A stretch of DNA of 64,000 nucleotides, taken from contig CM000433.1 of the NCBI GenBank assembly GCA_000165345.1, positions 992,001 through 1,056,000 on the forward strand, written 5' to 3'. The notes below the pieces were generated by a model. That model ran no database searches. It was not told the DNA's origin and saw only the letters and a program-made list of their open reading frames with translations. The stretch's first letter is position 1, and each line of letters starts with the position of its first letter. The translations under genes and the position numbers were made by a program. This document shows, one piece after another, positions 59,166-59,863 of this stretch.

Positions 59166-59280
59166 AATAATAATAATAATAATAATAATAATAATAATAA
59201 TGATAACAATAATAAATGATTAAAAACAATATTATTAAATTAATAATAACAATAATAATGAAAAATGGTAATAAGAATAA
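59166..59280. repeat. Left arm of a large inverted repeat ((AAT)n plus an 85-bp unique segment)
   Basis: 59196-59280 is the exact reverse complement of 59740-59824. I checked this base by base. The flanking (AAT)n mirrors the (ATT)n outside the right arm. Confidence 0.85.
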
Positions 59281-59739
59281 TAATAATAATAATAATAATA
59301 ATAATAATGATAGTAATAATGATAATAATAATAATAATAATAATAATAATAATAATAATAATGAGAAATGGTAATAATAATAATAATAATAATAATAATA
59401 ATAATAATAATAATAATAATAATAATAATTAATAGTAATAACATCAGAAAAAAAATATTGTCAATTTTTTAAAATATTATTATTGTTTAACAATAAATTA
59501 TTTTAAAAAATAACAATACTTATTAATAAAATAAAATATTGATCATCAATATTTTTGATTTATTAATACTGATATTTATGAATTACTAAGTATATTATTA
59601 TTTTTATAATTATTATTCTTATTATTGCTCTTAATATTCCTAATACTCTTATTATTCCTATTCCTGTTATTATATTATTATTATTATTCGTATTATTTTA
59701 AGTGTTATTTCATATTATTAATATTATTATTATTTTTTA

Positions 59740-59863
59740 TTATTCTTATTACCATTTTTCATTATTATTGTTATTATTAATTTAATAATATTGTTTTTAA
59801 TCATTTATTATTGTTATCATTATTATTATTATTATTATTATTATTATTATTATTATTATTATT
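59740..59863. repeat. Right arm of the same inverted repeat (85-bp unique segment plus (ATT)n)
   Basis: Reverse complement of 59196-59280. The spacer between arms is about 460 bp and is itself (AAT)n-rich. Confidence 0.85.

Follow-up and report, generated by a model that had tools for sequence, protein, structure and literature searches.

Palindromes on the primate sex chromosomes, which range from 10 kb to megabases in size and carry testis-expressed genes, undergo gene conversion from arm to arm. Among the long inverted repeats of Caenorhabditis (C. elegans), structure is more conserved than sequence (Zhao, Chang, Varley and Stormo 2007, PMC1803023). The locus described here, a non-coding palindrome in a subtelomeric intergenic region of Cryptosporidium parvum, can be compared with both. 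As in Caenorhabditis, its arms match almost perfectly within a species, the structure is kept at the orthologous site while the sequence differs, and conversion has been inferred; the nematode cases, however, take in homologous pairs of genes and intergenic regions in their entirety, whereas the Cryptosporidium arms are short (119 nt perfect, ~260–390 nt imperfect), do not code for protein and consist of AAT-rich mini/microsatellite units. With the primate palindromes it shares concerted arms around a unique spacer and a within-species identity far above that between species, but it is a geneless structure of ~1 kb in a protist genome of 9 Mb. MITEs and foldback transposons, too, have inverted repeats flanking a short, non-coding, AT-rich interior, with the possibility of a hairpin; at this locus, unlike in those elements, the sequences compared revealed no dispersed copies, no abutting target-site duplication and no empty site, and the lineage is reported to be without a transposase (PMC9141347). 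Neither of the two main assembly papers (PMC8744675, PMC12179316) mentions a palindrome or inverted repeat here, and literature searches recovered no earlier description of one in Cryptosporidium. The palindrome is, apparently, a fresh example of a known phenomenon, undescribed in this genus.

The window, a stretch of 64,000 nucleotides, comes from the 2004 assembly of C. parvum Iowa II. The palindrome is hosted by a 3.4-kb intergenic region which, at 11.5% GC, is the lowest in the window, and it lies downstream of AsnA (aspartate-ammonia ligase; 60933–61943, minus strand) and upstream of a variable-surface-protein gene (56666–57484, minus strand). The 272-aa product of the latter is identical to EAK87289.1 / Q5CPE0 (‘variable surface protein’, C. 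parvum Iowa II), and the next flanking ORF encodes GMP synthase (54601–56655, plus strand). These genes belong to a subtelomeric block shared, through duplication, by chromosomes 1, 7 and 8 (Baptista et al. 2022, PMC8744675; CpBGF T2T assembly, PMC12179316), in which the order is rRNA … GMP synthase – variable surface protein – AsnA – TrpB … telomere; the palindrome lies within the block and is duplicated with it. In the 2004 assembly the block was joined to chromosome 5 without HAPPY-map linkage, its true place being chromosomes 1, 7 and 8 (PMC8744675). A gap of 100 Ns at 52313–52412, between the chromosome body (VPS13-like ORFs up to ~52048) and the subtelomeric block, is consistent with this published misjoin. 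Scattered Ns, marking low-quality Sanger bases, occupy 60453–60881, directly 3′ of AsnA. The AsnA ORF itself is 336 aa long in the window, compared with 328 aa in all newer assemblies; the difference lies near its 3′ end, which suggests errors in the 2004 sequence near the end of the gene. The GMP synthase ORF contains two long Asn-rich insertions (NNNN…DNNNN; N17-IN3), which shows that (AAT)n expansion enters coding sequence in the block as well.

The original prediction was of a perfect 85-bp inverted repeat. Exact reverse complementarity between 59196–59280 and 59740–59824 was borne out, but the claim, while true, understates the structure: the match runs on for a further 31 nt outward and 3 nt inward, so that the perfect arms measure 119 nt each (59165–59283 and 59737–59855) and are separated by a spacer of 453 nt. 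Microsatellite makes up ~46% of each perfect arm, the remainder being complex sequence. The symmetry had been held to go beyond microsatellite coincidence, and both a shuffle test and a composition-based calculation exclude chance. In dinucleotide-preserving shuffles of the region 57485–60452 (n = 300), the longest perfect inverted repeat had a mean length of 16 nt and a maximum of 22 nt, and base composition alone would yield an exact complement to the 85-nt core somewhere in the region with a probability of ~10^-35. Elsewhere in the 64-kb window, all perfect inverted repeats of ≥30 nt consisted purely of (AAT)n/(ATT)n. A 23-bp mini-palindrome at 59533–59555 was also considered and is not special, as the region holds 17 comparable ones.

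Beyond the perfect arms the symmetry continues imperfectly. The segment 59027–59164 aligns with the reverse complement of 59856–59988 at 87% identity over 110 aligned columns, with an alignment score of 55, compared with a mean of 29.6 (sd 7.3, max 58, n = 300) for AT-rich control segments. With this diverged outer layer included, the whole palindrome extends over ~960 bp, about 59027–59988, and the outer extension is an older layer of the same palindrome. The potential for a long hairpin that had been proposed was upheld by folding predictions, in which the DNA minimum free energy of a single strand is –228 kcal/mol, against –94 kcal/mol for shuffles (z = –30). A spacer of 453 nt makes extrusion of a cruciform from duplex DNA doubtful.

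The palindrome can be divided into a central segment and, on either side of it, an inner array, a perfect arm and an outer extension. The left perfect arm (59165–59283, plus strand) comprises an (AAT)12 tract followed by a complex core, GATAACAATAATAAATGATTAAAAACAATATTATTAAATTAATAATAACAATAATAATGAAAAATGGTAATAAGAATAATAA, and is the exact reverse complement of the right perfect arm (59737–59855, minus strand), its inverted copy. Inward of the left arm is the first part of the spacer, an array (59284–59425, plus strand) of (AAT)n tracts with GAT/AGT interruptions, the length of which differs among strains and species. It is here that a ‘half-copy’ of the arm motif had been noticed within the spacer; the half-copy is real (GAGAAATGGTAATAATAA at ~59363–59380), sits within a 40-nt match of 92.5% identity, and corresponds to the GAGAAATGGTAAT-type repeat unit of C. 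meleagridis, of which there are also 4–5 repeats in C. hominis. The unique centre of the spacer (59426–59600, ~175 nt) is non-palindromic, has no assigned strand and is colinear in all three species; across it the AT skew flips sign, from +0.33 on the left through +0.05 in the centre to –0.39 on the right. The remainder of the spacer is an inner right array (59601–59736, minus strand) of ATT-rich degenerate repeats with TTATTCC/TTATTGC units, and within it lies a ‘B-block’, TATTTTAAGTGTTATTTCATATTATTAATATT, that recurs ~199 nt further right; in C. hominis the B-block is found on both sides, inside the perfect arms. Of the two outer imperfect extensions, the left (59027–59164, plus strand; TGAATGAATGAGAATAAAAAAA…AATATTATCAATAA…) is conserved unique flank in all three species. 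The right (59856–59988, minus strand), an inverted and diverged copy of the left, is found in C. parvum and C. hominis but not in C. meleagridis, the alignment of which has a gap at this position.

Coding potential was considered and rejected: the palindrome region has no ORF of >69 aa, the longest ORFs translate the repeats as poly-Ile, poly-Tyr or poly-Asn, and the repeat units share no common frame. A small ORF beginning MIKNN… starts in each arm but continues differently on the two sides. Rfam 15 covariance models run over 57400–61000 on both strands gave no match up to an E-value of 1, and a 27-nt piece of the core, scanned against metagenomes, found 0 matches.

Perfect arms were present in 7/7 C. 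parvum copies examined, from five assemblies including that of the window. Exact 119-nt arms were recovered in both orientations from GCA_031892065.1 and from the PacBio-based IOWA-ATCC assembly GCA_015245375.1, and again at three paralogous chromosome ends of the CpBGF T2T assembly GCA_035232765.1, built from ONT/Illumina data (CP141118, CP141124 and CP141125; L004 is CP141118.1, L018 the chromosome 7 and L017 the chromosome 8 paralogue); in GCA_048859185.1 the arms are 122 nt long, with one additional AAT per side. The spacer is otherwise essentially identical among C. parvum copies, with length changes of a few nt arising from microsatellites. The chromosome 7 paralogue matches the window at 95.3% identity only, with 56 gaps. 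In the CP141118.1 copy, at the equivalents of window positions 57940–58186 and 60474–60668, nearly every G, C or T of the other assemblies is read as A (occasionally T), and these A-rich stretches look like local consensus or polishing errors. Short-read assemblies (L005–L007) break near the palindrome, and in the C. hominis assembly GCA_001483515.1 a gap of Ns falls exactly at the site expected for the second arm.

A three-way alignment of C. parvum with C. hominis (L012, GCA_045269125.1) and C. meleagridis (L008, GCA_039657295.1) identified three unique blocks, colinear in the three species and 96–98% identical: a left flank (58730–59160), the centre (59426–59600) and a right flank (59986–60290). 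These alternate with two variable zones, the left holding AAT-rich units in one orientation and the right the same kinds of unit inverted. The zones differ greatly in size (left and right, respectively, 286 and 420 nt in C. parvum, 481 and 493 nt in C. hominis, 183 and 168 nt in C. meleagridis), and between C. parvum and C. meleagridis they are only 83–86% identical with >35% gap columns, against 96–98% for the flanks; the arrays turn over far faster than flanking DNA. Numbers of (AAT)n and lengths of arrays also vary among C. parvum strains, among paralogues and among species, which places the arrays with micro/minisatellites. The centre was considered as a possible sign of function and rejected as such: there C. 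parvum is 96.6% identical to C. hominis and 97.7% identical to C. meleagridis, values equal to those of other unique intergenic DNA (96.1–98.5%), and conservation therefore supplies no argument for function.

At the orthologous site C. hominis L012 has a perfect 119-nt repeat of its own (8085–8203 and 8702–8820, spacer 498 nt), which spans a shifted part of the repeat unit relative to that of C. parvum. No long perfect repeat was found in C. meleagridis, where the longest is a 38-nt microsatellite; the mirror layout is nevertheless there, with 4–5 GAGAAATGGTAAT-type units and (AAT)n on the left and (ATT)n and inverted ATTACCATTTCTC units on the right. In each of the three species the orthologous region is predicted to fold as one long hairpin (z = –14 in C. 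meleagridis; –290 kcal/mol in C. hominis), so that the hairpin structure, as modelled, outlasts sequence across the three. The alignment thus shows that the inverted arrangement is older than the divergence of the three species. L016, a contig of a more distant Cryptosporidium (AsnA 81% identical), lacks both alignable intergenic DNA and an inverted repeat, and orthologues from C. tyzzeri and C. cuniculus were absent from the protein clusters examined; with no outgroup containing the region, growth and shrinkage relative to C. meleagridis are not polarised.

Several other differences among the species were seen in and around this intergenic region. C. hominis L012 has a second, unrelated inverted repeat (10097–10172 and 10895–10970; 76 nt at 97% identity, 61 nt of them perfect, 722-nt spacer), absent in C. 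parvum, which brackets a G-rich minisatellite of 22–24-nt units just upstream of the variable-surface-protein gene. A ~45-nt segment, tttctttttaattccaaatttaataacttgacttaaactatta, flanked by a T-run and an A-run (~57990–58040 in the window, ~10165–10215 in L012), is inverted in C. hominis. The second repeat and the small inversion together suggest that the intergenic context may be prone to rearrangement. In nucleotide sequence, the gene for the 272-aa variable surface protein of C. parvum is 99.0% identical to that of C. meleagridis and only 79.6% identical to that of C. hominis. Identity between C. parvum and C. hominis rises from ~82% to ~97% near an (AT)n tract at ~58313, the variable-surface-protein gene (56666–57484, minus strand) and the sequence upstream of it to ~58300 being on the low side; a jump of this kind suggests either the edge of a mosaic or recombined segment, or paralogues sorted among the subtelomeric copies. 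C. meleagridis L008 contains, at 6627–7011, a partial and unannotated match to AsnA (82% over 414 nt, 23 gaps), representing either a degraded paralogue or a stretch of poor-quality assembly. The C. meleagridis assembly (L008–L011) contains at least four copies of the whole block: CM077713.1 has one at either end, CM077714.1 has one at a single end, and another is carried by an unplaced 30-kb contig; chromosome-end duplication is therefore common to C. meleagridis as well.

Comparison of arms within and between species bears on how the palindrome evolves. A 68-nt ‘A-block’ is common to the arms of C. parvum and C. hominis and differs between the two species by three substitutions and one 3-nt indel, and 4/4 of these differences are mirrored in both arms of each species, a small sample comprising four informative differences and one C. 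hominis assembly (L012) that spans both arms. Both arms lie in side-specific sequence contexts shared by the two species, so both copies must already have been present in the common ancestor. C. hominis also has a third, unpaired, direct copy of the A-block, which carries four private substitutions and has the C. parvum state at 3/4 of the species-specific sites; the paired state in C. hominis is therefore derived, and was copied to both arms. Unique intergenic DNA has diverged by ~3.4% between C. parvum and C. hominis, at which rate 119-nt arms evolving independently should differ at ~4 sites per species, with a probability of zero differences of ~0.02 per species; the observed number of arm-to-arm differences over 119 nt was 0 in C. 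parvum and 0 in C. hominis. Identity within species combined with difference between species reads as the signature of arm-to-arm homogenisation. We infer from this pattern that the locus is probably a non-coding palindromic mini/microsatellite in hyper-AT-rich subtelomeric DNA, the arms of which are homogenised by gene conversion.

Under such a process, slippage at replication would alter the copy number of (AAT)n, as the differences in tract length among strains and paralogues indicate. The arms would be kept identical by intrachromosomal gene conversion from one to the other, that is, by non-crossover homologous repair templated on the other arm, probably triggered by fork stalling or breaks within the AAT tracts. 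Repair from the inverted partner would erase arm differences over tracts of ~100 nt and leave sharp boundaries of identity. In the lineage of C. parvum and C. hominis, template switching or the spreading of conversion tracts may have enlarged the palindrome outward; absence of the outer right extension from C. meleagridis suggests such growth, with loss in C. meleagridis equally possible. An inverted spacer, the product of crossover, was found in none of the 10 copies with anchor sequences, all of which (10/10) had the same orientation, and it follows that any recombination between the arms is overwhelmingly non-crossover, or that inversions are counter-selected. No programmed function is necessary to explain the palindrome.

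Of the other explanations, one concerns the data themselves. A palindrome could be an artefact of assembly or cloning, arising for instance from a chimeric, folded-back read in the Sanger assembly of 2004, and the original prediction had raised such a read as an alternative; the assembly is old, and both the Ns at 60453–60881, only 600 bp off, and the 100-N gap at 52313–52412 might be taken as warnings. Yet the four other independent C. parvum assemblies have identical arms and near-identical spacers, and a homologous structure exists in one C. hominis assembly. Since the arms are shared by independent assemblies, long-read ones among them, the chimeric read is excluded, and we give practically no credence to an artefact of any kind. 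The suggestion of a MITE-like or foldback mobile element, or a remnant of one, fared little better. The form is right, in that a short non-coding spacer lies between long inverted repeats resembling terminal ones, and a 6-nt direct repeat, TCAGAA, stands near the outer ends (59021–59026 and 59989–59994), with a 7-nt match in C. meleagridis. As a putative target-site duplication, however, TCAGAA is short and does not abut the alignable ends, and in 90% AT DNA a 6-mer match, to be expected by chance, is weak evidence. Nor are there dispersed copies: in the 64-kb window and the other sequence of the loci compared, the only further copies of the core were segmental-duplicate copies of the locus, confined to duplications of ~30 kb at chromosome ends. 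All three species have the structure at the orthologous site, no empty site being known, and the arms are built of local motifs that recur in the surrounding repeats, the spacer and the C. meleagridis arrays. A survey of 12 Cryptosporidium genomes reported no transposable elements, dismissed all MITE candidates and detected a transposase signature in no apicomplexan genome (PMC9141347). A mobile origin is thus not supported, and we regard it as very improbable.

The two remaining explanations accept the palindrome as real and local. In one, inverted duplication took place recently, and separately in C. parvum and C. hominis, by fold-back or template switching, and the arms are identical through recency and not through ongoing conversion. 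The shift between the two species in which part of the repeat unit is perfectly matched would fit this, as would the sharp fall in identity at the tract ends and the other recent rearrangements of C. hominis in the same intergenic region; on the other hand, the A-block is on both sides in both species, its right copy in the same right-side-specific sequence, and the diverged outer extension (87%) shows older layers of the palindrome. Young duplication is on balance unlikely, while deserving some weight, and the distinction is largely semantic, as overwriting a diverged copy with the sequence of its partner is, operationally, gene conversion. The other explanation, which we consider doubtful, is that selection maintains the palindrome as a functional cis-element, the candidates being a replication origin, a start for recombination or break-induced replication driving end duplication, a chromatin boundary or nucleosome-excluding element, and a template for long hairpin RNA. 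Its attraction is that the mirror architecture and the strong predicted hairpin have been kept in three species while arm sequence turns over, and that strand composition flips at the centre (AT skew +0.33 left, –0.39 right). An intergenic region of 3.4 kb is, moreover, unusually long for this compact genome. The block that encloses the palindrome is also one known to spread by copying from one chromosome end to another (PMC8744675). Against selection, the centre and flanks are no better conserved than other unique intergenic DNA, arm length and content vary two- to three-fold among the species, and no Rfam family was matched. Cryptosporidium, moreover, is not known to have RNAi machinery. Survival of the architecture in three species despite rewriting, and its position in a copied block, mean that it could be a functional cis-element, and selection for a hairpin or palindrome would yield the same pattern, a mirror layout kept despite turnover, as neutral conversion. 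More specifically, the palindromic architecture itself might be selected, as a candidate origin, fork-pausing site, or site of breakage or strand invasion seeding the proposed break-induced replication of the chromosome 1, 7 and 8 subtelomeres, although this we would put forward only as a long shot.

Homogenisation of the arms by gene conversion, the reading we prefer, makes the locus a clean, small case of concerted inverted-repeat arms in a 9-Mb genome, and one reported to be without transposable elements, so that such structures there are not attributable to mobile DNA. The palindrome accounts for the site of a gap in short-read Cryptosporidium assemblies, GCA_001483515.1 for example, and local instability and broken short-read assemblies are its likely consequences. 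Its practical value is modest; the (AAT)n tracts and arm boundaries, varying as they do by strain and species, might serve as typing markers. For the biology of the parasite, it marks a hypervariable, recombination-prone spot in a block that contains GMP synthase, AsnA, TrpB and MEDLE genes and whose plasticity is currently attracting interest in relation to host adaptation. Were the palindrome truly an origin or an initiator of recombination, it would offer a handle on the duplication of chromosome ends in Cryptosporidium.
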